Positions 1 to 13,601 of a DNA stretch of 20,085 nt are shown here, in pieces. The DNA lies in NCBI GenBank assembly GCA_051382305.1, contig JBBCAV010000015.1, positions 1 through 20,085 of the forward strand. Reading direction: 5' to 3'. The first letter of the stretch is position 1, and each line of letters begins with the position of its first letter. A model generated the notes under the pieces. It was given only the letters and a program-made list of their open reading frames with translations. It made no database searches and had not been told where the DNA came from. Source of the stretch: Bdellovibrionota bacterium FG-2. GTDB lineage: Bacteria > Bdellovibrionota > UBA1018. Made by a program: the position numbers and the translations under genes.

Positions 1-112
1 AGGAGTTTTTGCTTGTTTTTATGAACCAGAGATGAGACTTTATGTTGGGCTGCTGCGACGAGGGCGTGTCATGATCGTTCCCTCCGTTGGGGTAGTTAAA
101 GTAACGTTATTT

Positions 113-147
113 AAAGCTCGGAATCTTAGTCCGGGCTTTTTTTATTT
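113..147 (+). terminator. Hairpin plus T-tract (intrinsic terminator-like), possibly within an IS end
   Basis: AAAGCTCGGA(113-122)/TCCGGGCTTT(130-139) stem with one G-U pair, running into a T-rich tract. Confidence 0.5.
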
Positions 148-208
148 GTACCCTCCATCCTAAAATCCGCAACAATTTTATCAGATCACGGCGGCGAGGT
201 GAACGGGC

Positions 209-502
209 TTATCCGGCTGCCATTGCCCCTAGATCGGTCTGAAGATAGAGATTGTTCACTTTCGAAATGTCCTCAGGAATATTCGAGAACGAAAGTTTTT
301 TTGGCGTCATGCGATGAGTGGGGTGAATGTCCTTTAAGATTGAACGTAATTTTTCAATATTTTGTGGAGTGAGTAGCAGGCAAAGGTCTAGATCCTGCGT
401 GACCATTGCTGAGCCGTGAAGTACGCCAGCAAATCCGCCAACCACGACGAATTCAATCTTTTGATTGATGAAGATCTGAAGAAGGCGATTTAGGCTTTGG
501 AT
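209..502 (-). pseudogene. Truncated nucleotidyltransferase (MNT-like) gene
   Basis: IEFVVVGGFAGVLHGS..TQDLDLC is a GG..DxD nucleotidyltransferase motif. The frame is open up to an ATC at 502 with SD GGAGAG. It ends abruptly at LQTDLGAMAAG*, much shorter than expected for the family. Confidence 0.7.
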
Positions 503-675
503 AGAAGCTCTCCGGCCTTTCTCAGTTCATTGACGAGTTCTAGTGCTGATTCATGACGCTCGATGCGTTCTTGAGGAGAAAGATCGAGGTTTACATCCAA
601 TAAGCTAACGTCGATTCCATACGCAATCGCATCAGTAATCGCGTCGGGAGGTGGATTGTGCTTTTCTTTTTTCAT
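490..675 (-). CDS. Small partner protein upstream of the nucleotidyltransferase (antitoxin-like)
   Basis: ATG at 675 with SD GAGGTG. GIDVSLLDVNLDLSPQERIERH resembles small proteins that precede MNT genes. It overlaps the start of the MNT frame. Confidence 0.6.
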   Translation of the reverse strand: MKKEKHNPPPDAITDAIAYGIDVSLLDVNLDLSPQERIERHESALELVNELRKAGELLSKA

Positions 676-729
676 GGGGACGTCACCTCGATCATGAGCT
701 CGTCTCATCTCTAGCTGAGGTTCTCGTCA

Positions 730-740
730 AAAATTGGCGT
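730..740 (+). repeat. att core, tRNA-distal copy (AAAATTGGCGT)
   Basis: Identical to 11876-11886. Joining the copies gives an in-frame alternative LSR C-terminus. Confidence 0.8.
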
Positions 741-794
741 ACCGAAATAGAGTTGTTCCGAAACGCCTGTGCCGAATACACCTCAGCGGCATAG
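735..794 (+). other. Detached 3' segment of the LSR gene (WRTEIELFRNACAEYTSAA*), coding only after excision
   Basis: TGG CGT ACC GAA ATA GAG TTG TTC CGA AAC GCC TGT GCC GAA TAC ACC TCA GCG GCA TAG, in phase with LSR codon W527. Confidence 0.75.
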
Positions 795-951
795 TGGCCT
801 ATTCCTTTGAAAAAATCCATAGCTAAGAAATCTTAAGGAGTCTGGTAAGATATGGCCCCATGTCCGAGCATTTGGTCGTCCAAATGAATCCTGTTTAGCG
901 TTTCAGCTTAGTGGGGAAGCTTTCGTCATTTTATTAACGCTTGAATTTTAG

Positions 952-1146
952 GTGGAAATTGCCGATATTGCTTATGTGAAGAAGCTTCAATTCTCTAAGA
1001 CCAAGCGGCAACAGCAACCCAAGAAGAAGGGTGCTCCCTCTTCTTTTCTCGTGCGCCTCGCCCAGGATTGGTCAAAAGTTAAGTCTTCTATCCCTCTTTC
1101 GATCATCGCCGCCGACCGTCGCGCTGCCGCTTCCAAGAACTCCTAG
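952..1146 (+). CDS. Small basic hypothetical protein
   Basis: 64-aa ORF ending 6 bp before the 346-aa gene; no motif recognised. Confidence 0.3.
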   Translation: MEIADIAYVKKLQFSKTKRQQQPKKKGAPSSFLVRLAQDWSKVKSSIPLSIIAADRRAAASKNS

Positions 1147-1152
1147 TTTCCT

Positions 1153-2193
1153 GTGAAAAAATCTATCCGATCCTACAAGTCTGCGATGTATGCCACAAGA
1201 GGGGATGCCCTGAAAACTGGCGACATCATCAAGCTCACGTCTGCGGATTTTCAGCGAATCGTAAAGCATCAGAGTATTCTTCAAGTGCTCAATCAATTTT
1301 CTGCCGATGACAAGTACACGGGGAACCTGTGGGCGGTTCTAAATAAGCCGTGTGACATGGTTCACAGCCAGAATCAGAAGTTTAAGCACAATTTGTTTTT
1401 GTGCCCTTTACAGGGGTTTTTGTCGGCCATCAAGTTCGGTCCTCTTGACGATTGTTTGCACTCTGCGACAACGAAGACGCCCGCAGCCGCACTTAAAGAT
1501 GCTTTCAGTAATTACACGCGGCGAAATACCAAGGAAAAGTATCCAAGGCCTTCTGAAAAGGCCGCGCCAGAATATGCAAAAGAGGTAGAGAATCTTGCTC
1601 GGCCCGCTATTGAAAAGATACGAGAGTTGGTCGGTGAGTTAAGCACCGAGGACGATGATCCCGAAGGGATTCTGTCGGATTTGAGGAAAGCAGTACGAAA
1701 GAACCGACTTGCTTATCAAGACTTAAAGACGTTTGGCGAGAGCAGCGAGTTTCAAAAGGTAATAGACGCTCACAAGCGGAGTATTCAGCGGCAGAAGGCG
1801 GTCATCATATCTCCGGCAAAGCACGACAAGGTCGCTGACCTTTGCTTAAATCAATTCGATACCCAAGGTATCTTTTTGTACGAGCCGCATCAGAGAATCT
1901 GGAAGGTCAGCAACGATTTGGTGCATATTATTCGCCTTGAGGAGATGCTAACGCTGAAAGTTAAACCCTTACTCCGAGATAATGGTGAGTTAGTGCATTT
2001 GCTTTTGGATCGCCGGGTTATTAGCCTGACGGAAAATTTCTCAGACCGCCTTCAGAACATTATGGGTAATTACTACTCGAAGATTGGAACAGATGACGTG
2101 TCCTCATCTCCAATCATGGAACTTTACCATCGGCTCTTTCCAAAGAAATTCTTTTGGACCCCGACTGACTATGAAAAAAGATCCTCACAATAA
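1153..2193 (+). CDS. Hypothetical cargo protein with GDI..PCD..CPL..RxxSL..Y(S)KIG pattern (possible PemK/MazF-like fold, candidate defence gene)
   Basis: 346-aa ORF with TGDII, AVLNKPCDM, LFLCPL and RRVISLTENFSDRLQNIMGNYYSKIG. Family assignment is inferred. Confidence 0.6.
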   Translation: MKKSIRSYKSAMYATRGDALKTGDIIKLTSADFQRIVKHQSILQVLNQFSADDKYTGNLWAVLNKPCDMVHSQNQKFKHNLFLCPLQGFLSAIKFGPLDDCLHSATTKTPAAALKDAFSNYTRRNTKEKYPRPSEKAAPEYAKEVENLARPAIEKIRELVGELSTEDDDPEGILSDLRKAVRKNRLAYQDLKTFGESSEFQKVIDAHKRSIQRQKAVIISPAKHDKVADLCLNQFDTQGIFLYEPHQRIWKVSNDLVHIIRLEEMLTLKVKPLLRDNGELVHLLLDRRVISLTENFSDRLQNIMGNYYSKIGTDDVSSSPIMELYHRLFPKKFFWTPTDYEKRSSQ

Positions 2194-2197
2194 ATGG

Positions 2198-2216
2198 CGT
2201 CGGATCTAATCCGACG
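2198..2216. other. Perfect 8-bp hairpin after the 346-aa gene
   Basis: CGTCGGAT-CTA-ATCCGACG; no T-tract. Confidence 0.45.
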
Positions 2217-2420
2217 GCAAGTGGCCAAATTTCATAAGTGAGGCCGGTCTTTTGTGTACTACGAAAACTCGATAAAGGTGGACGTTTTGATGGCAAAAGT
2301 TTGTGCGCACAAATGAGCGTTGCTGACCGCCCCCCGCCGAACTTCTCCGGTTCTGGTGAAATTATTAGCTTCTTCCGACAAGGCAATTGACCACTCATGG
2401 TCAAAGGGGAGGAAAACGAT

Positions 2421-3074
2421 ATGTCACGCCTGTCATCAGCAATCGAAGCCGCAGTCATCGCCGCCTTCGAGGACTCCGGTTCAATCAGCAAAGCGGCAAG
2501 CCTTAATCGAGTGGCCCGGAATACGGCAAAACGTATTCTAAGGGATGCGGAGATACTTCCAACGGCTTGCGCTATAAATGCGAGCGCAGAAGTAATGGGG
2601 CCTTGTCCGGCGCCATTCAAACCACTTTTCGAGCCTGACTTGCTAATGCTTCAGGGCATGTTGGATCGGTTTCCAGTGGGTCCACAGCCATTCAAACAAT
2701 CGAACACTCCGCTGCCTGAGACGACCCAGATCAGTTTTAAAGAAAATGTTATTGAACGGACAAAGGTGATTGCCGCGCACCTTGGGGTTGATAATGAACT
2801 TGATGCCTTGAAGCTGCAAGTGGTGATGTCGGAATTTGTGTCGCATCTGATACTCAGTTACCAATCTTTGGCGAGCACTGCTGACTACCTTCAGTTCAAG
2901 GATCTGGCCAAGATGGCCCGTAGAACGCGCTCACTCGGCAGCATTGCGAGTGAACACTATAGGAACTTCATGAACGGCATTCGCGACCTTGAGATTACAT
3001 ATCGCCGTCGCCTACCCGATATGGGGCGGGGTAATTCTTTTATCAACATCCATGGCCCCTCTGTGGAGGCATGA
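2421..3074 (+). CDS. HTH-containing protein, possibly terminase small subunit-like
   Basis: ATG at 2421 with SD GGGGAGG. N-terminal HTH SISKAASLNRVARNTAKRIL, helical core and C-terminal beta-strand-like SFINIH. Confidence 0.55.
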   Translation: MSRLSSAIEAAVIAAFEDSGSISKAASLNRVARNTAKRILRDAEILPTACAINASAEVMGPCPAPFKPLFEPDLLMLQGMLDRFPVGPQPFKQSNTPLPETTQISFKENVIERTKVIAAHLGVDNELDALKLQVVMSEFVSHLILSYQSLASTADYLQFKDLAKMARRTRSLGSIASEHYRNFMNGIRDLEITYRRRLPDMGRGNSFINIHGPSVEA

Positions 3075-3077
3075 CGA

Positions 3078-3356
3078 ATGAAGATGTGCAGATCCTTGCA
3101 ATACGGGCTGCTATTGCATCAGGCACTTCACGATCCAGATGGCTTCGCTGCATTGATGAAATCGGATGAAGGCCTGGCGTTAAGCAAAAAACACAACCTT
3201 GCAGACGTTTTGTCGCTGGCCCTAAGCTGGCGCGATCATGGTGAGGAGGACCTCAAGCGGCTCACCGAGGAGTGGGACGTCATGGATGTCAAAAGCGGTA
3301 GAGATATCCTGCCCACCAAGAAAGAGCAGTTGTTCCCGAAAATCCAGCAGTGTTAA
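3078..3356 (+). CDS. Hypothetical protein
   Basis: SD GGAGG (3065-3069) 8 nt before the ATG; follows the HTH gene; overlaps the convergent PEGA gene by 68 bp. Confidence 0.5.
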   Translation: MKMCRSLQYGLLLHQALHDPDGFAALMKSDEGLALSKKHNLADVLSLALSWRDHGEEDLKRLTEEWDVMDVKSGRDILPTKKEQLFPKIQQC

Positions 3357-5106
3357 GGTATTTATCAAATCCCGCTTGTAGGGTTAGGCAATGATGGATC
3401 GAGGGGTTCCTGCTTAGTAGTTTATACCCTACAACTCCACCCATCCGCGCCTGGTTAAATTTGGCGACTGTCACTGTCTGGCCTGGTCCATTGCGTTCCA
3501 ATTCACCATGACTGTTGGTTGAGGAATTATCGGGAATGTTTTCCGCTGAGTAGGTGTGTTGAGCGTAACCGATAGTAGGTCCAGCAAATAGCCAGCCAAT
3601 TGCTTGCTCTGACGGATTCCCTGATTCAAACAAATAGAATGGCACGGCAGCGTAATAGTCAGACCCCGTCAAGATAACTGGAACATCTGCCTGTTTTGCT
3701 CCATAAGAATAGAAATTATACGTCATTGAGGTAGAACCGTTAGACCCTCCGGTACCACCGGCACCGAACTTGATTCCGATTCGCCGTTTGAGTTTGTACT
3801 CAATATCAATAGAGACACGCAGAAAGTCAGCGCCAATGCTTTCTTTTACGGTCTTCCCCCCCTGGCCAATACCAAACCCAATAAACAAATAGGCTGCGTG
3901 AAGACTTCCCAGCGCCTCAATCCGAGCGCGCTCGGCATCACGCTCTTGCTCTTCTTCGCGTTCCTGCCTTCTAATTTGCTCCAGAGAGACGAGTCGAACC
4001 GTCGGCAGCATAAGTTTTTCGCCCCCACGCAGCTCGATGTGTTGATTGAAGTCCTGGTAGCCATTCTTTCTTAACGCGATGTCGTGGCTCCCGGCTGGCA
4101 CCTGCTGAAATCCCATTGGTGTTCGGAGATTCGCAAGTGGGCGCTCATCAATAATGATCTCGGCACCAGAGGGGGAGCTTGTTACCGCGACAAGAGCTGG
4201 CTTGAGCGTCAAAACTAGTGGCAGGTCAACCTCTTGGTCCTTGAGTATTTCTTTTTCTGTGACAAGTGGCTCACCTTCAGCATGGCTGACCTCGATCCTG
4301 ATGCTCTTTCCAGCGGTTACAATGACGTAATCCGTGGGGGTGGTTCCAATCCGTTTCCCGTCGATGACCACATGTGCGTTCGGAAGGTTGGTCGTGACTC
4401 TTATTTTACCGCTGGCTGGAACTAGGATTTTGTTGACTGCGACCTTGGCTCCAGGAACAACGATTATCTTTTCCTCGATTGCCTCATAAGCGGTGTCCTC
4501 AATGCGAACGATGTGTTCTCCCGTCGTTAGTTGCCCAATCAGGCGCAGCGGTGTCCGTCCCCATCGCTCTCCGTCAATATAGACGCTCGCGCTCGGATTG
4601 CTCGTTACTTCAATTGTTCCCCTGACTGCATCGAGGGCGTTGCCTTGCTGTGTGAAAACAAGGGGCGCTTCCGCCTCTTTGACTGTTGTCAGCCGAGCCT
4701 TTTCTCTCTCTATCGCGACCTTCGGATACCGATAAAGTACCCAGACGTTTACCCGTCCATCTGGACTTTGCTCTCGATAAAACTCGACCTGCTCAAAATC
4801 GTGCAGTCCGACCAGGCGTGATCGCTCATCAATACGTTTAGTGACTTGCGCTCTGTCGCTTTGCTCGTAGGATTGGGTATTTATCCGAGTTTTAAATCCA
4901 AAGTTTTCTCGAATGGCAGCATCGCTAGCATCTCTCACCGCCTCGTCCACTGCCACTCGATCATTAGCAGCGCCTGACGAGCGTCCGATATAATACTTAT
5001 CGGTTTTGGTTTGGGCGGGGGGATGGTCGAGCCATTCGGGGCGAGATGCGGCAAAAGCGAGCCCTGGAATGAGAAAAAGTAGCCACAGATCACGTGATAA
5101 TCGCAC
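3289..5106 (-). CDS. Exported PEGA-domain protein with N-terminal LPP20-like domain and probable C-terminal outer-membrane beta-barrel
   Basis: Signal peptide, then RPEWL..YYIGRS. Three PEGA-like repeats (VTSNPSASVYIDGERWGRTP, VTTNLPNAHVVIDGKRIGTTP, VTSSPSGAEIIIDE..TP), a charged linker and a C-terminal GYLYRF. Confidence 0.8.
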   Translation of the reverse strand: MRLSRDLWLLFLIPGLAFAASRPEWLDHPPAQTKTDKYYIGRSSGAANDRVAVDEAVRDASDAAIRENFGFKTRINTQSYEQSDRAQVTKRIDERSRLVGLHDFEQVEFYREQSPDGRVNVWVLYRYPKVAIEREKARLTTVKEAEAPLVFTQQGNALDAVRGTIEVTSNPSASVYIDGERWGRTPLRLIGQLTTGEHIVRIEDTAYEAIEEKIIVVPGAKVAVNKILVPASGKIRVTTNLPNAHVVIDGKRIGTTPTDYVIVTAGKSIRIEVSHAEGEPLVTEKEILKDQEVDLPLVLTLKPALVAVTSSPSGAEIIIDERPLANLRTPMGFQQVPAGSHDIALRKNGYQDFNQHIELRGGEKLMLPTVRLVSLEQIRRQEREEEQERDAERARIEALGSLHAAYLFIGFGIGQGGKTVKESIGADFLRVSIDIEYKLKRRIGIKFGAGGTGGSNGSTSMTYNFYSYGAKQADVPVILTGSDYYAAVPFYLFESGNPSEQAIGWLFAGPTIGYAQHTYSAENIPDNSSTNSHGELERNGPGQTVTVAKFNQARMGGVVGYKLLSRNPSIHHCLTLQAGFDKYLNTAGFSGTTALSWWAGYLYRF

Positions 5107-5121
5107 GCTGCCTCCGCGCCT

Positions 5122-5739
5122 TTATTCCTGCGATTGACTCGCTTTCTCAGGTATGGCGATGGCCGGAGCTGCCTTGAAAAATTCTACCTGCTTGGTGGTA
5201 ATGGCTTCCTTGATTCGCATGTCTACTGCGATGATCTTGTTAAGTATGCCCTGTTTTGTGGTGTTGTAGGCGGCCAGCGAAATCTCACTCAGAACGTAGC
5301 ATTCCACTCGCTCTGTCTGCTCAGCGCGAAACCGCTCATAGAATTCTTCGGTGAATCTAAGTCCCGTAAGAGTCCCGCCAAACTCAGCGGTTCTGACCTT
5401 GCCGAGCACTGTTTCGCCTGACTCCTGAAGCGTCGTTTGAGCATTGTCGATGGTTCCCTTGATGTCGTTCTTGATTTCAGAGACAAGATTTTCCTTGGTT
5501 TGCAACTTGGCTAGGTCGAAGCAGCCATTCACGCGCTCATCACCCCGAACTTGTTGAGAAGTCTTGAATAGATACTTGTCACCGTCTTGCCAAAATGTTT
5601 TTGAGTTCCTAACGAAGCTTGGGACATCGTTTTCTTTGTGAAGCGAGTTATCCAGCCATTCACGCTTGAGGCCGGTTGAGGAACAGCCAAGAAATACTGT
5701 TGTCAACAGGACTCCCGTCAACGTTACTTTGAGTGTCAT
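5122..5739 (-). CDS. Lipoprotein (LPP20-like)
   Basis: ATG at 5739 with SD AAAGGA; lipobox FLGC followed by SST. Confidence 0.7.
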   Translation of the reverse strand: MTLKVTLTGVLLTTVFLGCSSTGLKREWLDNSLHKENDVPSFVRNSKTFWQDGDKYLFKTSQQVRGDERVNGCFDLAKLQTKENLVSEIKNDIKGTIDNAQTTLQESGETVLGKVRTAEFGGTLTGLRFTEEFYERFRAEQTERVECYVLSEISLAAYNTTKQGILNKIIAVDMRIKEAITTKQVEFFKAAPAIAIPEKASQSQE

Positions 5740-5798
5740 TTTTGATCCTTTCATGGAACTGCGATTGAGATGTGCGACCATGTGGTGATCCGTCTCAA

Positions 5799-6485
5799 TC
5801 ACAGAAGTTTTTGTTTCCAACTACTAAACTTATTCCTAATTGTGTTCCAAGTGGACTGATACATTGGGATATTTAGGCCTTTTTGAAAATCTTCTTGCGA
5901 ACACGCAACCCATTTTCCATTCCGCATAACCGAATACTTTCTCAGATCACCCAACTCCATGTAGAGATAGAGTTCTGGTATCGTGATCTTTTGGAGAAGG
6001 GCTGGGTCGTCGTCAGCAATTATCTTCTTAGCCGTCTCTCCACCGTCCATAAAGAACCAGGTTTCCCCATTGTCCTCGGTGAGTCCGACCAATGAGCTGT
6101 AAATGGTGCCCTTTGCATCGTTGCGACTTGTGGGGGCTTCAGTGGGAATAACCGCCGCCCAAGCAGCCTTACCCTTCTGTATCTCGCTGGGTTTTCCTGC
6201 TTTTAGTTGGTTGACGGCAAACCCCATCTCTTGCTTATATTTAGCCGTAACCATTTGTAACATTTTGCTGTAGCCTTCAGCGCCGCCGAATGATTGCAGG
6301 ATATTGGGCAGGGCGAAGGAAGCCATTGTTATGTAGTCTTCATGAGCGTAGGCATCGACATATCTACCTACCGCTTGACGGAGAGTTTGGTCTGGGTTGA
6401 TTTTTTCTTCTGCTGTGGCAAAAGCGGAGGCAAACATAGCAAAACAAACAGCCAATGTTACCTTCGATAACTTTTTGACGGCCAT
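5799..6485 (-). CDS. Secreted hypothetical protein
   Basis: SD AGGAGA; Sec signal peptide ending ATA; TEDNGETWFFMD motif. Confidence 0.7.
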   Translation of the reverse strand: MAVKKLSKVTLAVCFAMFASAFATAEEKINPDQTLRQAVGRYVDAYAHEDYITMASFALPNILQSFGGAEGYSKMLQMVTAKYKQEMGFAVNQLKAGKPSEIQKGKAAWAAVIPTEAPTSRNDAKGTIYSSLVGLTEDNGETWFFMDGGETAKKIIADDDPALLQKITIPELYLYMELGDLRKYSVMRNGKWVACSQEDFQKGLNIPMYQSTWNTIRNKFSSWKQKLL

Positions 6486-6496
6486 CTTCTCTCCTG

Positions 6497-6880
6497 TTAC
6501 GGTTTTCGACCGCTACCCGTTTTCCTGATCAACCGCTTCGCTGATATTCTGTAAATTCCTTCAAGCCCGGAATCATGCTCTTCAAACAAAACTTCCAATG
6601 GAATTTGATCAGGGGTTTGATTTCCGTGAGTTCCGAGACACAGATACTCAAATGAAACGCCAAGACCTGTCGCCAGAGCCGCGACTTTGTGCAAGTCAGC
6701 CGGTTGTGCTCCGGATGCCCAATCGGCAATTGTACTCGCACTTACGCTGGCAATCTCGGCGGCAGCTCGATGGGTAAGATTACGCTCCTTGAGTAAGCGC
6801 GAGAGATTACTGGCCAAGGTGCCCTGCACCTTGCCTCGCCGTGGGCGCTTTGCTTCCTTCGTCATGATTCGATTTTCCAT
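6497..6880 (-). CDS. XRE-family HTH transcriptional regulator
   Basis: LASNLSRLLKERNLTHRAAAEIASVSASTIADWASG..KVAALATGLGVSFEYL. Start is 6880 or 6865 rather than 7027. Confidence 0.85.
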   Translation of the reverse strand: MENRIMTKEAKRPRRGKVQGTLASNLSRLLKERNLTHRAAAEIASVSASTIADWASGAQPADLHKVAALATGLGVSFEYLCLGTHGNQTPDQIPLEVLFEEHDSGLEGIYRISAKRLIRKTGSGRKP

Positions 6881-6898
6881 CAAAGCCGCTTGAAGGGT

Positions 6899-6937
6899 CG
6901 AATTATTCGGAGAACCGTTGTTACGTTCGAAGAACCG
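6899..6937. promoter_or_regulatory. Putative XRE operator repeats
   Basis: TTCGGAGAACCG (6906-6917) and TTCGAAGAACCG (6926-6937) start 20 bp apart, plus palindrome CGAATTATTCG (6899-6909), just upstream of the XRE gene. Confidence 0.5.
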
Positions 6938-7054
6938 ATCAACTGGGCTAATTGCTGTCGTGGGACTCTTCTTTTTCATCGCAGCTCCATAGGAGAAACC
7001 TTTACGATGATTGGGGGACGTCTCCAAAGCTCAGTCGATTGTGGCGGCTGTTTC

Positions 7055-7789
7055 CTAGTCATCGCCATCCCCCCTTTTGAAGTTCGTATTTCGCAGAAAC
7101 GCGCTCACAACACTCTTAGGTTTTTTGGCGGGGACTATAGCGTGAAGTTCAGCTTTCTCACACTTATCTGAACTTGGCGGGGCATAGAGGTCCAAGTTGT
7201 CGAGCGTTCCTACGGCGTGAGCGTACAAGTTGGTCACGCTAATTGAGTGATGGCCCAGGTTGTCGCGGACAGTGCCAAGGCCGACTTTGCCGGATGCCAG
7301 GAGGAGCGAGCAATAGGTGTGGCGCAAACAATGGGTTGATAACTGGGTCGGAAAGCTCAAGACAGCGAAGATCAGCTTCACTCGTTTTTGAACGCCGCGA
7401 GTCGTGTAAGCTGTACTGTAGCGGCTGGGAAATAGCGGCGCTGTTGGAGCCGATTCGCTGCCAAGCCTCTCCTTAATCAATAGCCATTCCTTGAGCATAT
7501 TCGCCGTTGTGCGAGTCAGGAGGACGGTTCGTGGGACATCGCCTTTGCCATGACGTACCGCAAGCCTAAGTCCCGCAAAATCGCTATTTTCAAGAGCGCA
7601 GAGTTCAAAAACACGAAGCCCCGTTTCGAGCAGCGTGCGAAGCAAGTAGAAGTCGCGAATGCCTTGAAGATTCTTGCTTCTGGCAAGAGCAAGATCGCGG
7701 CGATCAGTGAGATAGGCGTTAAGTCGCTCAATCTGAGTCAGGGTTAAGAACTTGTCTGAAGTTACTCGCCATTTCTTTCGTTTAGACAT
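7055..7789 (-). CDS. Tyrosine recombinase, catalytic domain only (resolvase/invertase-like)
   Basis: TGLRVFEL, GKG, HCLRHTY, LGH and TNLY supply the catalytic R-K-H-R-H-Y residues. ATG at 7789 with SD AGGAG. No arm-binding or SAM-like N-terminal domain. Confidence 0.9.
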   Translation of the reverse strand: MSKRKKWRVTSDKFLTLTQIERLNAYLTDRRDLALARSKNLQGIRDFYLLRTLLETGLRVFELCALENSDFAGLRLAVRHGKGDVPRTVLLTRTTANMLKEWLLIKERLGSESAPTAPLFPSRYSTAYTTRGVQKRVKLIFAVLSFPTQLSTHCLRHTYCSLLLASGKVGLGTVRDNLGHHSISVTNLYAHAVGTLDNLDLYAPPSSDKCEKAELHAIVPAKKPKSVVSAFLRNTNFKRGDGDD

Positions 7790-7810
7790 TGCATTGCTCC
7801 TTAAAAAGAC

Positions 7811-7878
7811 AGTAACACTAAGCGTTACTAATTTCAATACGAAAATGTATTGACCGTAAATACATAATACAATACACT
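7811..7878. promoter_or_regulatory. Divergent control region with sigma70-like promoter and repeats
   Basis: TTGACC(7850-7855)-N17-TACACT(7873-7878). Inverted repeats AGTAAC-N7-GTTACT (7811-7829) and TCAATAC-N6-GTATTGA (7834-7853). AATAC occurs at 7836, 7859, 7866 and 7871. Confidence 0.65.
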
Positions 7879-7886
7879 TTTATTAT

Positions 7887-8093
7887 ATGAGCGATCATCC
7901 GAGTTTTAAACGACCTGCCGAAATGAAAATCAAGGCCGACGAGCGCGTTCCGGTGTCGACAAGGATTCATGAATCCACCAGAGATTTTCTTAATCGTGAG
8001 GCAGAGAAAAATGGCCTATCGCTCGCTTTACTTCTGTCCAATGTGATCGAAGATTATGCGACGTGGTTGAGAGCTGAATCGAAGAAGAAATAG
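7887..8093 (+). CDS. Ribbon-helix-helix (CopG/Arc-like) DNA-binding protein
   Basis: VPVSTRIHESTRDFLNREAEKNGLSLALLLSNVIEDY fits a beta-alpha-alpha pattern. Confidence 0.75.
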   Translation: MSDHPSFKRPAEMKIKADERVPVSTRIHESTRDFLNREAEKNGLSLALLLSNVIEDYATWLRAESKKK

Positions 8094-8205
8094 CGCAGTT
8101 TGCCTCTAAGCTGACGAAAGGAGTCTTCATGATCCGAGTAAACTTCAGCCCCAAAACCCACACTACCAGTTCCTTCGTATTCGTCACAAGTAGAGGGGGT
8201 CGGTA

Positions 8206-8700
8206 ATGTGCGATGATGGCGGGGGCATTATTGAGGCAGGTGAGGACGAGGGTATTTTGGCTGAGATGTTGAACGAAACGGAATTAGCTCGTCGTTGTCA
8301 GACGCTCTTGGATTATGGTTTGACCCGGCATTTGCTCGACCTTACCTATGGGGCGACAAGGCGGTTCCCTGAAAATAATCGATTCCATTTTTACGAGGCG
8401 GTCGCATTCATGCGGCTTGGCAACGTCAATGCCGCTAGAGGAGCCTTCAACCGCGCCTATTCAGCCAGCTCGGGAAAATGCCTTCTCGTTTTCTATCTTG
8501 GGAATTGCCTCACGTCAGGTAGGATCGGTACGGCATTAGAAATAATTCATCGCCATTATGAGTCCTTTGGAAGTCGAGAAAAATGCTTGGTCTTGGAGAT
8601 GATTGAGATTGCTCTCTTCCTGGAGATTATCGAGCTAGAGGAGCTTCCAGCCGGTATCAAAGCGGCACTGATTTCGTTAAACTTGAATGAACTGACATAA
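8206..8700 (+). CDS. TPR-like helical repeat protein
   Basis: SD GAGGGGG; RRFPENNRFHFYEAVAFMRLGNVNAARGAFNRAY fits a TPR consensus. Confidence 0.6.
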   Translation: MCDDGGGIIEAGEDEGILAEMLNETELARRCQTLLDYGLTRHLLDLTYGATRRFPENNRFHFYEAVAFMRLGNVNAARGAFNRAYSASSGKCLLVFYLGNCLTSGRIGTALEIIHRHYESFGSREKCLVLEMIEIALFLEIIELEELPAGIKAALISLNLNELT

Positions 8701-8980
8701 TAAACGCAGATATTTTCATTTTTTTTAAGAAATCCGTCCGGTTTTTGTTTTTCACTCGTATAAATAACAGCGAGAAAAAATCGCGATGAGGAAGGCCTCA
8801 ATTGGTTCTTCTCCCCATGTGAAGGAACGTTGGACGCAATGTTGCGCCAGAAAAGGAAAGAACAGGTATGTTGATGAGGGCTGAGTTGCACGAGTGGCTA
8901 ATATCTCGGTTCCCGTTCCGCCCAGGCCCATCTGTAGCGGTCCTATCTACCCCATTCTCATGCTCTCATAGAGGTGACTC

Positions 8981-9898
8981 ATGATATTTGACAAGCTCAC
9001 CATTTATGGAGAGTTTCAGATTCGTCCTGAAACTCTTGGCATCATGACTGCTCACACCCGCTCTGTATCTCGCACTCATTTCTATTGGCAGAACCATCGG
9101 TACGAGCTGTTCAACGGAGCGGTCATCTTTGTTAAGCGTGGCAAGACAAGCAGGAAGGTAGAAGTTGACCTTAACCCTAATCACTTTTCATCAAAGAAGG
9201 CAGTGCTGAAGTTTCTCGACCTCATTATCGTTGATTTTGATCCTGCTGTGGTAATTCCAAAAAAAGTTCATCTCAATGTTGATCTCGTTGGAGTTTCGCC
9301 AGACTTAGTCAAGCAAGAGATCAATCCATCGTGGCTTAGAAAGGTCTTTAAGGTTGCTGATGAAGAGTCGTGGAAGTCTGGCAAATTCGACGAGCGGCGA
9401 GCCAGCTTTTACTTTGGTAGCAAAAAGCGAAAACAGCTCGTGATGTACGATGCGTTCAAACGTCATGGTGGAGTTGATCCCACGACTCGGATTGAGTACC
9501 AGATGAATGAAAAGAATATACACAAGTACGAGAGTTTGCGCGACCTGTTGGACCATATTCCCGGCATGAAGCCCTTCTCGATGCTTAAATTCTACTCCTA
9601 TTTTTCAAACCATATGCCAGACGCAAAAAATAGGATGAAGGCTGATCACCTGACGTTAAGTTTAGAAAAATACGGCTATCGACTCACCTTTCAGCGATTC
9701 AAGAAGTTGGACGGTCACTATGACGACTCATACGACGCTGTTCTAAAGCAGTTTAAAAAGAAGGACTACAAGCTGGATAAGCTTTTCCAACGGCGAGCTA
9801 AAAAATTCTTCGCGGCGGGAGTTGGTCGCGCTGACCGTGAGATGTTTCGAGATGCCAAGGAGATTATGAAGGCTGGTAAGGCAAGTGCTTGGAGTTAG
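8981..9898 (+). CDS. Rep_trans-like rolling-circle replication initiator / MOBT-like relaxase
   Basis: SD GAGGTG. KVHLNVDL, SFYFGSKKRKQLVMYD and TRIEYQ match, in order and spacing, the Rep_trans motifs RxDxAxD, YxGS..YdK and RxE. Confidence 0.7.
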   Translation: MIFDKLTIYGEFQIRPETLGIMTAHTRSVSRTHFYWQNHRYELFNGAVIFVKRGKTSRKVEVDLNPNHFSSKKAVLKFLDLIIVDFDPAVVIPKKVHLNVDLVGVSPDLVKQEINPSWLRKVFKVADEESWKSGKFDERRASFYFGSKKRKQLVMYDAFKRHGGVDPTTRIEYQMNEKNIHKYESLRDLLDHIPGMKPFSMLKFYSYFSNHMPDAKNRMKADHLTLSLEKYGYRLTFQRFKKLDGHYDDSYDAVLKQFKKKDYKLDKLFQRRAKKFFAAGVGRADREMFRDAKEIMKAGKASAWS

Positions 9899-9943
9899 GG
9901 CAATCGTGCCTATTTGGTCGAACAAAAGTTTTGGAGGTAACCC

Positions 9944-10297
9944 ATGAGTTCTCAAGAGAAAGACGCGAAATTCATCATCTCTGGTATCTGGCGCATCGCA
10001 GAGGAGATTGTTTGGCTTCGGGAAGTTAACGCAGAGGCAACTTGTAGACATTCGCTTGGTTCGTTTTGTCAGGACGACGACGCCTCGAAAAAGCTCGTTT
10101 TAGCGGCCCAGGATGCCGTAGGGGCGACTTCATCGGTTAGGTCGATCCTTGCCATTCGAACCCCCGCGGTTGAGTCCCTCGGGCTTGCTGAACAAGAGTT
10201 CAGGCAGCTTGTAGAAGTTTTTGAACTTCTTAATCAATGGAACGATGAAGCTAAGGACGCCCAACGGGAAGCTCTCGAACCCGAAACTCATGGCTAA
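9944..10297 (+). CDS. Hypothetical helical protein directly upstream of the integrase
   Basis: SD GGAGGT; ends 5 bp before the LSR start. Confidence 0.6.
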   Translation: MSSQEKDAKFIISGIWRIAEEIVWLREVNAEATCRHSLGSFCQDDDASKKLVLAAQDAVGATSSVRSILAIRTPAVESLGLAEQEFRQLVEVFELLNQWNDEAKDAQREALEPETHG

Positions 10298-10302
10298 AGG
10301 CC

Positions 10303-11937
10303 ATGAACGATAATAGAAGGAAAACTCTTATGCGCACACCATCCAAAACTAATGCCGACCGTCGAGCCTATCTTTTCCTTCGAGTGAGTAGCCATCATCA
10401 AAAGGGCAATACATCCCATGAGACTCAATACGAAGAAGCTGAGGCTTATTGCCGAAGAAAGGGGTTGACGGTTGATCGTGTCGTGCGGATCGTAGAGTCG
10501 GCAAGCGATTCTGAGCATCGAAAACAATACTCTCAGGGTATGAGCGATGCCGACAGAGTCGGCGTTCGTCATAGGGTCTTTTACGTTTTTGATCGTGAGT
10601 CGCGAAACTTGACAGACAACGAATCAAACGAAAAAAAAGTTCGGAGCGGTCAAATAGAGCTTCACTACGTTAGAGAAGACAAAGTCTTTAATGAGGATAC
10701 TACGGATTCAGATTTTTTCATGAGGGATATAAATGCGGTAAATAACAAGCAATTTATCCGGCAACTTAGCTCAAAAGTGAAGGACGCCACGAAAATGAAA
10801 GCGCAGAGTGGATGGTTTCCCGGCAATCATCTCCCACTTGGGTACATCCATAAAAAGAACCGGGATGAAAATGGGCGGGAATTGAAGCGCGGCACGACTG
10901 TTGTGCGCGACCCCAATGAGCAAAATGTTCGACAAGTTCAGCGAGAGTTTGCACTCCGGGCCGAAAGGTGTGCATTGGGGGAAATTCGATCAAAGATTAT
11001 TCATGAGGGGTTGATCCAGGCAAAAAAGATTCAATCCTACCACATTAGTACCATCGAGCGTCGCTTGAAAAATAGGTTTTATCGGGGACAGTTTGATTGG
11101 GCGGGGCAGGAGTATCAAGGTAAGCATGAGCTTATTATTCCCCATGGGACGCTCAAGGTGGTTGATGAGTCATTCGGCTTGAGAGTCCGGTACACTTCTA
11201 AACAGCAGCTCGGAATTTTTGGCGGAGGATGGCTGAAATGCGCGGACGCAGCGTGCGGTTGCCATGTTTTGTATGATCCGAAAATAAAGAAGATAAAATT
11301 GACAGGCGAGATGCGCGAATACAGATACTACCATTGCTCTGACGGCAAGAAAGTTCATCAAAAGAGATCAAATATAACCGAAGATTCCTTGTGGGGTGGT
11401 CTGGGCACAGCGGTGGATAAGATTACCATTACCGCAGAATTTGCGGACCAAATCGCAGAAGCACTGAATCAAGCACAACTGAAGGCGCAGAGCGCAGTCC
11501 GCAGGGAGATGGATGGATACAGTGCTGCGCTGGATACCCTGGAGAATAAGCGGAATCGCCTCTTTGATATGTTACTGAGCAATGAGATTAGTAAGGATGA
11601 GTTTGATCGACAGTCCCAACGTTTAACCAAAGAGCGGCATGAGATCACTGCTATGCTCGAAGCCGCCCAGCTCAGGATCACTGGTGCTGTATTCAAAACT
11701 GCGAAGGATATTCTCGAACTGGCCACAAAGGCGAAATCACTGTGGATTCAGCGAACACCCGCAGAACGCAAGATGTTCCTGGATCACATACTCTCGAACC
11801 CGGTTTTTGATGGGGTAACTGTGCGATATGAGCTGAGAAAGCCTTTCGTCATTCTAGAGGAAATGACGAAAAAAGAAAATTGGCGTCTCCACGGGGATTC
11901 GAACCCCGGTTACTCCCGTGAAAGGGGAGTGTCCTAG
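10303..11937 (+). CDS. Large serine recombinase (integrase), integrated-state isoform
   Basis: YLFLRVSS catalytic Ser motif, DRESRN, PLGY recombinase domain, CADAACG..YYHC zinc ribbon and coiled coil. The last 18 residues overlap tRNA-Glu on the opposite strand. Confidence 0.93.
   Translation: MNDNRRKTLMRTPSKTNADRRAYLFLRVSSHHQKGNTSHETQYEEAEAYCRRKGLTVDRVVRIVESASDSEHRKQYSQGMSDADRVGVRHRVFYVFDRESRNLTDNESNEKKVRSGQIELHYVREDKVFNEDTTDSDFFMRDINAVNNKQFIRQLSSKVKDATKMKAQSGWFPGNHLPLGYIHKKNRDENGRELKRGTTVVRDPNEQNVRQVQREFALRAERCALGEIRSKIIHEGLIQAKKIQSYHISTIERRLKNRFYRGQFDWAGQEYQGKHELIIPHGTLKVVDESFGLRVRYTSKQQLGIFGGGWLKCADAACGCHVLYDPKIKKIKLTGEMREYRYYHCSDGKKVHQKRSNITEDSLWGGLGTAVDKITITAEFADQIAEALNQAQLKAQSAVRREMDGYSAALDTLENKRNRLFDMLLSNEISKDEFDRQSQRLTKERHEITAMLEAAQLRITGAVFKTAKDILELATKAKSLWIQRTPAERKMFLDHILSNPVFDGVTVRYELRKPFVILEEMTKKENWRLHGDSNPGYSRERGVS
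11844..11871 (-). terminator. 10-bp hairpin inside the LSR CDS just downstream of the tRNA 3' end
   Basis: TTTCGTCATT-N8-AATGACGAAA perfect inverted repeat. Confidence 0.45.
11876..11886 (+). repeat. att core, tRNA-proximal copy
   Basis: AAAATTGGCGT is the reverse complement of the tRNA 3' ACGCCA plus ATTTT. Confidence 0.8.
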
Positions 11938-11956
11938 GCCTCTAGACGATGGAGAC
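11881..11956 (-). tRNA. tRNA-Glu (anticodon TTC)
   Basis: GTCTCCATCGTCTAGAGGCCTAGGACACTCCCCTTTCACGGGAGTAACCGGGGTTCGAATCCCCGTGGAGACGCCA forms a 76-nt cloverleaf with GTTCGAA T-arm and encoded CCA. Confidence 0.97.
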
Positions 11957-11994
11957 GCATATGCCGACGTCCTCGACAATTTTGAGAGTTCCAA

Positions 11995-12023
11995 TCAATA
12001 CATGGGTGTATTGCGTTTTTCAA
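11995..12023 (-). promoter_or_regulatory. Putative tRNA-Glu promoter
   Basis: Minus strand TTGAAA-N17-TATTGA about 40 bp upstream of the tRNA. Confidence 0.45.
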
Positions 12024-12156
12024 TATCGATTCCGTGGGACCCCCAAAAAACTTCCAGTGGGCCTATTTTTAGGCTTTACGATGGGTCTCTTCTCGCTAGC
12101 AGACGGGCTGAATTATTTGTTTGACACTGTGAGTCGGATGTGATCAGTAGGGGGTT

Positions 12157-12963
12157 ATGAAATGGGACATGGGTGGATATTTTAAGCAGTACTGGGGGAG
12201 GAGCCTTCTTTTTGCCGCAGCAGCGGTAACGGGGGGATCCGCTATTCTTTCGGGGTGTCAGATGAACGATTCTGCGCCGGTGGAGGCCGCGTCTTCGGCC
12301 CTGCGCACAGGTTGTCAGGTCAGCCCTGATCAAAAGGCAAGCTTCTTAAAGCCAGTGGGCGCCTCTTTGCTCACGGTCAAGGTTGATGATCAGTTCTCGG
12401 ATGTCCAGATTCAGGCGATCAAGAAAGCGGTGGATGAGTGGAATGGATTTTCGGCTCGCCTCGCAGGTCGACCCTATTTAGAAATGGTCAAGAGTACGGT
12501 TCCGGAGAGTGTGCGCTCCTTGGATCCTCATGAGTGCTCCGGGGGGTTTGGAAATGCGGATTCGTTCTACATCGTGCGCGAGCAATCCAATACGAGATGG
12601 CAGGCCATGAGTTTCTCGAGCAACATTTCTGCGGCCACCATTCGTTGTGATGATGGCAAGAGCGTCACGGAGCAGGTGGTTCTCGTCAATACTTCGGTCA
12701 CTGATGTGGTTCAGCTTACCAGTGTTGCGCTTCACGAATTAGGGCATGTTTTGGGACTAGATCATAGTTGTGCGGATAGTTTTGGAAAAACGGATTTCCG
12801 CGGCTGCGCGGGCCTTCTTCCTGATAATGCTTATCGCAAGGCTGTTATGTTTCCGACGCTCAAGAAGGCGCACTTCGATGGAGATACTTTTGATGTGAAA
12901 GAAACTCTTCGAGAAAACGATACGGTCCGTGCTAGTTGTCTTTCCATGGGCGATGCTCAATGA
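12157..12963 (+). CDS. Matrixin (M10) family zinc metalloprotease, lipoprotein
   Basis: HELGHVLGLDH (HExxHxxGxxH), Met-turn AVMFP and lipobox LSGC. Confidence 0.9.
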   Translation: MKWDMGGYFKQYWGRSLLFAAAAVTGGSAILSGCQMNDSAPVEAASSALRTGCQVSPDQKASFLKPVGASLLTVKVDDQFSDVQIQAIKKAVDEWNGFSARLAGRPYLEMVKSTVPESVRSLDPHECSGGFGNADSFYIVREQSNTRWQAMSFSSNISAATIRCDDGKSVTEQVVLVNTSVTDVVQLTSVALHELGHVLGLDHSCADSFGKTDFRGCAGLLPDNAYRKAVMFPTLKKAHFDGDTFDVKETLRENDTVRASCLSMGDAQ

Positions 12964-13601
12964 TTCTACTCGCAGCCTCTGCAGGTCTTGTTGGCTTGAT
13001 GCACACGCTTGCTCCCAGTCACTGGTTGCCTGTGGTTCTGATGGTTAAAGCGCGTAAATGGGGAGTCGCGCGTGCAGTCTTGGGTGCGCTCGTAGCAGCT
13101 TCTGGCCATTTGCTCACCTCGATGGGTCTGGCCTTGGTTGCGATTAAGATTGGATTTGAACTCATGCCGGGCTTTGAAGAGGAAATTGAACACTATGGGG
13201 GCGCAGGCCTGATTGTTTTCGGCATTTCCTACGCCATCTTTACTTATTTTCGGCACTCCCAATGTCATGGCCACAGCCATCATGGCCCCGATCCCGAAGG
13301 CGACTCTCGCTCCGGCGATTCGCGCGCGTTTTTGTTTCTCTTCACGCTCGGGCTCTCTCCCTGTTTGGCGGTGTTCCCGGTCTTCGCAGCCGCTTCGGGG
13401 CGAGGAACCTTGGCGTTGACTTCAACGCTAGTGGCTTTTTCTTTTGGCGTTTTGACCACGCTAATTAGTGCAACCGTGCTTGTCTCGCGCGGTTTTATGG
13501 CATTTGATCATCCCTTGATTGAGCATTATGGGGAAGTTATTGCCGGTCTCGTAATCGCACTCATGGGCGTGTTTGTATTTTTGTTTCCTTCACTTTTTTG
13601 A
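12960..13601 (+). CDS. Nickel/cobalt transporter-like membrane protein (RcnA/UreH-like)
   Basis: GLMHTLAPSHW, His-rich loop HSQCHGHSHH, LSPC and about 6 TM segments. ATG at 12960 overlaps the upstream TGA. Confidence 0.75.
   Translation: MILLAASAGLVGLMHTLAPSHWLPVVLMVKARKWGVARAVLGALVAASGHLLTSMGLALVAIKIGFELMPGFEEEIEHYGGAGLIVFGISYAIFTYFRHSQCHGHSHHGPDPEGDSRSGDSRAFLFLFTLGLSPCLAVFPVFAAASGRGTLALTSTLVAFSFGVLTTLISATVLVSRGFMAFDHPLIEHYGEVIAGLVIALMGVFVFLFPSLF

Follow-up and report, generated by a model that had tools for sequence, protein, structure and literature searches.

Integrases whose attachment site attP lies inside their own gene have been described among tyrosine recombinases. In Myxococcus phage Mx8 and in the Sulfolobus virus SSV, integration changes (Mx8) or splits (SSV) the integrase gene and excision restores it (PMC6070905, PMC4383910). 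The stretch of DNA analysed in this work, termed the window, spans 20,085 bases from the start of contig C15 of Bdellovibrionota bacterium FG-2, whose genome assembly measures 4.34 Mb in 433 contigs and is 85% complete. It contains a putative integrative element of about 11.1 kb next to a tRNA-Glu gene, the integrase of which is a large serine recombinase (LSR) that appears to exchange its own C-terminus upon recombination. An earlier note on this DNA had named the Mx8 and SSV enzymes as tyrosine integrases that extend across attP, and both precedents are as stated there. Judged by analogy, the closest functional parallel is Mx8, which also has a tRNA gene as target and stems from a related bacterial lineage, while SSV resembles the present locus more loosely. 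When Mx8 integrates, its int gene becomes recombinant and acquires another 3′ terminus, whereby the enzyme is not inactivated but changed in specificity (PMC6070905). Mx8 and SSV integrases are, however, tyrosine recombinases with long attachment (att) sites and another chemistry, whereas an LSR operates here, which thus works alike without being a member of these systems. Moreover, the crossover is located here directly at the CCA end, and the duplicated part of the tRNA comprises no more than about 6 nucleotides (nt). The element also departs from Islander-type tRNA islands, which are flanked by a tRNA gene and a displaced fragment of it and encode a tyrosine integrase: here, just 6 nt of the tRNA, lying within the 11-nt core, are repeated, and the integrating enzyme is of the serine type. 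The immunity systems of BPs-type mycobacteriophages share an attP within a regulatory gene and a protein C-terminus altered by integration (PMC4557955). There, the split gene is that of the repressor and the integrase is of the tyrosine type, whereas here the integrase gene itself is split.

Canonical LSRs, such as those of A118/LI, Bxb1, PhiC31 and SPbeta (SprA), are generally described with an attP outside the integrase gene and with protein genes or intergenic DNA as targets. In the family described here, in contrast, the gene itself is the substrate. Domain order and fold are common to both groups, and so, apparently, are short att cores and an outer motif displaced by 5 bp in attP relative to attB (PMC3783163). 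A small partner protein at the base of the coiled coil (PMC11722253) is predicted in our case as well. The use of tRNA genes by serine integrases was not known according to a database paper of 2014. Within the open-access literature, no account was found of a serine integrase that has attP in its own gene or targets tRNA genes, and the word “tRNA” does not occur in the main text of the preprint by Durrant et al.

The split integrase gene at tRNA-Glu

The core sequence AAAATTGGCGT is present in two exact copies on the + strand of the window, at positions 730–740 (attL core) and 11876–11886 (attR core); with one mismatch allowed, four matches are found versus 0.71 expected. The right copy is embedded in the LSR gene (10303–11937, +), which encodes 544 amino acids (aa) in its integrated form. 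Its TGG at 11881–11883 serves both as codon W527 and as antisense of the CCA of an intact tRNA-Glu(TTC) gene (11881–11956, − strand), the terminal bases ACGCCA of which lie inside the core. This tRNA is the only one detected by ARAGORN in the window, and it was found as a single copy in the genome. Codons 1–528 of the LSR gene are provided by the element and the last 16 by the antisense strand of tRNA-Glu. The protein ends with ...KKENWRLHGDSNPGYSRERGVS, i.e. ...KKENWR followed by LHGDSNPGYSRERGVS and the stop; all residues past WR are read from the antisense strand of the tRNA. Within the RER of this hybrid tail, the codon GAA for Glu is antisense to the tRNA-Glu anticodon. At the left core copy, the TGG at 735–737 is continued in frame by WRTEIELFRNACAEYTSAA up to a TAG at 792–794. 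The segment 735–794 (+), composed of W, 18 further codons and the stop, is the putative detached native 3′ end of the integrase gene and at the same time the P′ arm of attP; the joined product would consist of 545 aa. The earlier note had described the core in both places, the 544-aa reading frame entering the tRNA-Glu antisense strand and the 545-aa joined product, correctly in all details.

An 11-nt repeat on its own is not beyond chance, as a repeat search in 13.5 kb of the window yielded at least 60 direct-repeat families and about 20 exact 11-mer pairs are expected by our own estimate. The repeat exceeds chance because of the sequence content behind its left copy. A matrix of 15 positions was built from the C-termini of 26 other native-tail proteins, with the window excluded, and applied to each TGG followed by 11–50 open codons. 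The site at 735 reached a score of 20.0, compared with 3.3 for the next + strand site of the window and 6.0 for the best minus-strand site. In the whole 4.34-Mb genome it ranks first of 64,545 TGG sites, with a runner-up of 17.5 and a 99.99th percentile of 13.9. The left core is therefore continued in frame by the native C-terminus of the integrase family. Segment 730–11886 is thus probably an 11.1-kb integrative element, which was inserted by its own LSR at the 3′ CCA end of tRNA-Glu(UUC) and whose integrase gene is split at W527.

The attP crossover would accordingly take place within codon W527 or directly behind it; this TGG is antisense to CCA and precedes the stop by 18 codons. Integration would split the gene such that its body at attR reads into the tRNA antisense strand and its native last 18 codons come to lie about 11 kb away at attL, and excision would rejoin both parts. 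Since the gene is split on integration, each DNA state provides one isoform. As read from the arrangement of the sequences, the inserted copy is shown to be able to make only the hybrid (or a tail-less) form and the circle only the native form, while the tRNA is left intact.

The polypeptide has the hallmarks of an LSR. A resolvase-type catalytic domain (Pfam Resolvase, residues 22–170, E = 1.2e-08) is followed by a Recombinase domain (residues 210–285, E = 1.2e-04) and by a zinc ribbon with an inserted coiled coil, the latter being visible in the structural model as long paired helices at residues 378–459. Among 40 aligned relatives R27, S29, Q33, D97, R98, E99 and R101 are invariant, as are C313 and C345, whereas C318 and C320 are nearly so.

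C-terminal tails across the integrase family

Homologs of the integrase come from Bdellovibrionota, and its clade is present in Bdellovibrionota and some Myxococcota. The best 120 homolog proteins were classified. All of them share the block ...VRYxLKKPFxxLxEMxxxxxW, and W527 is invariant in the 40-sequence alignment. Beyond this block, 78 of the 120 proteins carry a tRNA-antisense or very short tail (for example WRPQGDSNPCILREREVS) and 27 a native tail of the pattern WRxxh[DE]xFR[TN]xhxxhxAA with a modal length of 17 aa; the other 15 belong to neither class. The native protein tails end with Ala in 17 of 27 cases and with Ala-Ala in 10. Scans of genome, metagenome and viral collections provided 128 loci, which were supplemented with the window and with a paralog encoded elsewhere in FG-2; the C-terminal block was found in 110 of these loci and the W codon could be placed in 104. 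A minus-strand tRNA was detected by ARAGORN at the W codon in 76 loci, and in all 76 of them TGG starts exactly at the 3′ end of the tRNA. These tRNAs represent 22 anticodon types (for Glu, Ser, Arg, Val, Leu, His, Asp, Ala, Gln, Met and Asn). The residue after W (R, C, W, G, L or Y) follows the discriminator base and position 72 of the tRNA and is identical in the hybrid and native tails of 16 of the 17 loci with both ends known. Counted from W527, the hybrid tails extend over 3 to more than 36 aa, a length set by the tRNA, and have no feature in common. The paralog in the same genome (locus L027, contig C338) likewise ends in a tRNA, in this case tRNA-Arg(ACG). The genome-wide matrix scan of the assembly did not reveal the far end of this paralog, and a candidate on contig C286 was rejected as only 6 nt are in common. 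A 394-aa open reading frame (ORF), transposase-like by eye, is located at 147–1331 of the same locus on the opposite strand, approximately 185 nt upstream of the start of the paralogous integrase gene. Relatives with 50% identity on three viral contigs of 31–40 kb (L152–L154) end with ...MVVPPGSFSDLFPAFPDEND and have neither a Trp at the conserved place nor a tRNA overlap; they are a branch without the split-gene arrangement.

The earlier note had proposed to examine the far ends of related elements for conservation of a W..FRxxC-type tail. Such a native tail, positioned upstream on the same strand behind a shared core of 5–11 nt with TGG, is present in 17 of 99 integrated-type loci, i.e. in the window and 16 others, and the elements thereby delimited range from 2.5 to 11.5 kb. 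The far-end scores are bimodal, with 17 values of at least 19.3 and the next at 9.3, while the minus-strand control reached at least 19 in 1 of 104 loci (median 2.2). This single control match, on the minus strand of L052 with a score of 19.9, may be the end of a second element in opposite orientation. When 14–20 kb of additional upstream sequence were included for five integrated-type loci in which no such tail had been seen, native tails emerged in four of them. In three of these four loci two native-type tails lie 1–2.7 kb apart upstream of one integrase (L157, 10896 and 13614; L159, 8893 and 11232; L160, 14915 and 16011) and may be stacked left ends originating from successive insertions or satellite elements. 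Only TGG is common to the shared cores of all 17 loci, and TGG plus three further bases to those of 16; the crossover is therefore limited to codons 527–528. A dyad-symmetry scan showed a weak maximum 3 nt right of TGG and did not narrow the crossover further. The comparison of the sequences therefore supports the central claim of the earlier note, according to which the LSR C-terminus is exchanged by the element's own recombination, and extends it to a whole family. We consider it very probable that both this architecture and the exchange of isoforms exist and are subject to selection.

The tail appears, on the basis of these alignments, to be conserved at both the protein and the DNA level. 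The conserved Phe is encoded by TTC or TTT (replaced by Leu, CTC or CTT, in two loci), the conserved Arg by CGA, CGG or AGA, and the terminal Ala-Ala by GCG GCA, GCT GCA, GCT GCC or GCA GCT. Complete far-end tails consist of exactly 17 aa in 9 of 16 cases and end with Ala in 10 and with Ala-Ala in 7 of 16; in addition, a hydrophobic residue or Cys is conserved at position +11 of the native tail. Residue conservation, fixed length and terminal Ala run 30–51 nt from the crossover and hence past the usual attP half-site. At the DNA level, the tRNA arm (nt 12–30 from TGG, corresponding to the T-arm) matches the tail-coding arm best at a shift of +5 (65 of 162 positions, compared with 25–52 at 12 other shifts). 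An offset of 5 bp in the zinc-ribbon motif between attB and attP has been described for LI integrase (PMC3783163). On the basis of the +5 fit, the F-R-T codons would also mimic the T-loop sequence TTCGAAC. The tail-coding DNA would in this manner act as the P′ arm of attP and imitate the tRNA T-arm 5 bp further out.

Mobility and contents of the element

Signs of mobility come from related elements. Contig L112 (7,627 nt) closes on itself, as the initial 94 nt and the final 97 nt are identical apart from a single additional TGG located at the W codon. Its LSR gene, which has a native tail, spans the contig ends intact. The two ends (1–94 and 7531–7627) read WW versus WWW, as expected of a misaligned exchange in a TGGTGG (CCACCA) core; among the ORFs of this contig, Pfam matched a helix-turn-helix (HTH) protein only. 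A sister element (L053) with a 49% identical integrase shows the same tRNA-Glu insertion and the same hybrid tail. Its left flank carries a terminator hairpin, which directly abuts the tRNA in the element-free locus of a genome of the same genus (G001). In run X1, the only run found to contain the stretch and stored as contigs, a 49-nt unitig (depth 65; window positions 11870–11906) joins this hairpin straight to tRNA-Glu and thus represents an empty site of the G001/L053 flank type; the run also holds the L053-type right junction. The depth of the tRNA unitig (92.6) is close to the sum of three forms, namely about 65 for the empty site, 14 for the attR of the window and a remainder of about 13. 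The unitig depths suggest that the L053-type element is polymorphic in this sample.

The right flank of the window is syntenic with G001. There, tRNA and right flank are arranged as in the window, but the left flank consists of the hairpin and a 390-aa gene, which was not found in the FG-2 assembly at its completeness of 85%. The left flank of the window (B side, 209–708, −) instead carries a toxin-antitoxin-like pair formed by a small protein (490–675/708) and the N-terminal part of a DUF6036-type nucleotidyltransferase (209–445). The two ORFs are 52% and 64% identical to neighbouring genes on a different contig of G001, where no tRNA is present at that place. Since the left-flank genes of the window are found elsewhere in G001, the region downstream of tRNA-Glu varies between strains. 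The Pfam matches to DUF6036/DUF2204 sit on the G001 homolog of the nucleotidyltransferase, which is truncated in the window, and the small protein corresponds in G001 to the C-terminal portion of a 224-aa ORF. The shortness of the left flank is explained by a multi-copy repeat (1–225) at the contig start, which does not belong to the element. This repeat is present in at least 13 places of the genome with 92–100% identity, many of them at contig ends, and its contig depth amounts to 175–410 compared with 8–17 elsewhere, the value of 410 being reached in a 38-nt core (188–225). The repeat at window positions 1–233 is probably the end of an insertion sequence or a miniature inverted-repeat transposable element that broke the assembly just left of the element.

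The body of the element (741–11875) harbours genes mostly of unassigned function, and scans against Pfam, PHROGs and NCBIfam revealed no match to phage structural genes among its proteins. Assigned products comprise a PEGA-domain protein (3289–5106, −), an XRE-type HTH regulator (6497–7027, −), an adjoining short (260 aa) Xer-like tyrosine recombinase (7055–7837, −), an Arc-like small protein (7887–8093, +) and a TPR protein (8206–8700, +). Only the HTH regulator and the tyrosine recombinase, with homologs in 8 and 6 other loci, respectively, recur in a tblastn search of the window proteins against all loci. The tyrosine recombinase is situated in mid-element, and no link was made between it and the element ends; it may serve in dimer resolution or inversion. 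Terminator and promoter scans around both ends of the integrase gene gave nothing that exceeded shuffled sequences.

Possible consequences of the exchanged C-terminus

LSRs normally use a separate directionality factor, and this remark of the earlier note still applies, since a conserved small gene resembling a recombination directionality factor (RDF) lies directly upstream of the integrase gene. The candidate RDF ORF (9944–10297, +) stops 5 nt before the integrase start, and its conserved helix spans residues ~76–103. The ORFs found directly upstream of other LSR genes of the family fall into two sequence clusters with 25 and 23 members, which share the helix sxEEFxxhVxhFxxLxxWRDE. A complex predicted for residues 72–117 of the small ORF and residues 296–544 of the LSR scored 0.77 in three runs, with 0.00 for the best of three controls, a contact agreement of at least 86% and a predicted local distance difference test score (pLDDT) of at least 73 for the partner. 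A score of this height is attained by 58 of 80 solved complexes and by 2 of 110 mismatched pairs. Predicted contacts involve LSR residues 374–391 and 465–484, which form the bases of the outgoing and returning coiled-coil helices, as well as 492–496 and 512–521. The last contact is thus positioned six residues ahead of the swap point W527. In SPbeta, the essential helix of the RDF packs in this region, flanking Int F532, and a residue near the LSR C-terminus at the RDF interface affects directionality (PMC11722253). The C-terminal region is a fixed part of the SPbeta protein, whereas the segment following the predicted contacts 512–521 is exchanged by recombination in our case; the residue match between the two is rough. 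SPbeta SprA reportedly also possesses an “extreme C-terminal element” (said to have been described by Abe et al. in 2021). By eye, the partner helix (..EQEFRQLVEVFELL..) and the native tail (..IELFRNACAEYT..) have a common F-R-polar-h-h-x-x-aromatic pattern, which could reflect a competition for one groove or merely two similar amphipathic helices.

Structure predictions were obtained with AlphaFold2 for a natural native-tail member (P0024, 29-sequence alignment, pLDDT 85) and for the hybrid protein of the window (40-sequence alignment, pLDDT 85.5). In P0024 the tail is a helix over residues 518–533 with a pLDDT of ~90, which drops to 73 for the last few residues, while residues 530–544 of the hybrid protein remain below 50 and its tail is predicted to be disordered (42–44). 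Superposition of the P0024 model onto solved integrases, including PhiC31, gave Z-scores of 11–14.8, the highest for SPbeta (14.8; 457 residues aligned, root-mean-square deviation 15.7) followed by Bxb1 (14.1) and LI (12.3). In a profile search of the solved structures, matches were confined to the A118 integrase and an archaeal protein, and SPbeta was not recovered. The structural alignments end at model residues 506–513, so that the swapped helix lies past the last ordered residues of the solved chains.

The hybrid enzyme is the sole form available for excision and is, we infer, competent for this reaction, whereas the native enzyme with its conserved C-terminal helix would be the form available on the circle for integration. 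The native helix presumably matters to the protein. That the two isoforms differ in a way of importance to the element is, in our estimation, an evenly balanced question. Such a difference is made more plausible by the fold predictions, the predicted partner interface close to the swap point and the role of the extreme C-terminus of SPbeta integrase in directionality. The likeliest effect of losing or regaining the helix would be a regulatory one, i.e. a changed response to a partner, given that the predicted RDF docking surface ends six residues ahead of the helix start. Tentatively, and with more doubt than confidence, we consider a scenario in which recombination rewrites the enzyme's own directionality module, so that the direction would be set by the DNA state without any timing of RDF expression. 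The RDF-like gene, 5 nt ahead of the integrase start on the same strand, would probably be co-produced with the integrase. The native helix would fill or shield the RDF groove, such that the circle-encoded enzyme ignores the RDF and integrates. Upon integration this helix would be lost, and the chromosome-encoded enzyme would respond to the RDF and be able to excise the element.

Several observations weigh against this interpretation or against a simple two-state form of the architecture. The left flank of the window differs from the sequence following tRNA-Glu in G001, so that this comparison did not show the ancestral empty site of the window copy. The circle junction and empty site that the earlier note had expected in reads did not appear with the window's own left flank when the contigs of run X1 were mapped on positions 1–13000; contigs drop rare forms, so that this result has no bearing on absence. 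Where at least 8 kb upstream were covered (52 integrated-type loci), the examined sequence shows no far-end tail in 35 cases, among them the five loci extended above, one of which still showed none after extension. Native-like tails are contiguous with the gene in four chromosomal or unclosed loci (L030, L075, L091 and L100). When the tails are left out of tree construction, the two tail classes still cluster in part (10 changes versus a shuffled mean of 24.3), and the nearest neighbour is also native-tailed for 19 of the 27 native-tail proteins. Certain subclades may therefore just differ in lifestyle instead of having been sampled in two states. As the relatives on viral contigs have neither the Trp nor the tRNA overlap, the enzyme can function without this architecture. 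The apparent tolerance of hybrid tails of any length is as compatible with a dispensable tail as with a switch, and part of the D-x-F-R-T conservation can be explained by the role of the DNA as attP arm. Finally, the calibration of the predicted complex is rough as own alignments were used, and the agreement may reflect only the likeness to already solved integrase–RDF complexes.

These points have to be weighed together with four other explanations. In a compact element whose P′ arm is bound to mimic the tRNA, attP would overlie the 3′ end of the gene anyway; the architecture would be real, but the tail would be kept mainly as DNA, the isoforms would be alike and the direction would be set by the RDF-like protein alone. 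This neutral overlap is a possible explanation, albeit a doubtful one. It conforms with the coincidence of the D-x-F-R-T codons with the T-arm-mimicking stretch at the +5 shift, the absence of a common feature among hybrid tails of 3 to more than 36 aa, the quite different C-termini of the viral-contig relatives and the presence of a conserved, predicted RDF-like partner. It is difficult to reconcile with the codon variation at conserved residues, with the prediction of the tail as a packed helix at a pLDDT of ~90, and with a conservation that reaches, in the +11 position, the length and the terminal Ala, past the expected attP half-site of ~25–28 bp. As a Mx8-like variant, the native helix might be needed for full activity and its loss on integration might weaken or alter the integrase and thereby stabilise the insertion and block additional reactions. 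The geometry is indeed that of Mx8, with attP within int and a tRNA gene as target, and the predicted order of the native helix and disorder of the hybrid tail would suit such a lock. We nevertheless regard it as unlikely, since the hybrid is the sole integrase of an inserted element and must excise it if the elements move, and movement is suggested by the closed 7.6-kb contig and the empty sites.

The terminal Ala or Ala-Ala might alternatively resemble an ssrA-type tag, whose exchange would render the circle-encoded integrase short-lived and the chromosomal one stable, or the reverse. In integration-dependent immunity phages, ssrA-like tags are removed by integration. The attP of these phages is placed inside the repressor gene (PMC4557955), and the frequencies of tails ending in Ala (17/27 native and 10/16 far-end) and Ala-Ala (10/27 and 7/16) would be in line with a degradation signal. 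The tail is, however, predicted as a packed helix rather than a free tag, and many native tails are longer and have different ends, which makes this explanation quite improbable. An accidental 11-nt repeat together with an ORF that happens to enter the tRNA, the real ends of the element lying elsewhere, could draw only on the commonness of repeats of this size in the window. It is refuted in our view by the genome-wide rank of site 735, the 76 of 76 tRNA registers and the far-end tails of other loci, and retains practically no probability. The reading that we prefer for the architecture thus remains an element inserted at the tRNA CCA end by an LSR whose gene is split by its own reaction.

Several consequences arise for this family. 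It would show that tRNA genes are accessible to serine integrases, with no fewer than 22 anticodon types cut at the CCA end, and, as these tRNA-targeting enzymes are of the serine type, they escape island finders built for tyrosine integrases. Gene callers always misreport the C-terminus of integrated copies, and tRNA-derived or very short tails account for 78 of the 120 homologs. Serine integrases are prized because a short pair of sites and one protein suffice for one-way insertion, while reversal needs a timed second protein. The clade would comprise the first serine integrases that read tRNA CCA ends. With a C-terminus exchanged by the very reaction that the enzyme catalyses, next to the predicted docking surface of the second protein, it would offer a ready-made natural test of how the extreme C-terminus controls direction and could suggest self-resetting switches.

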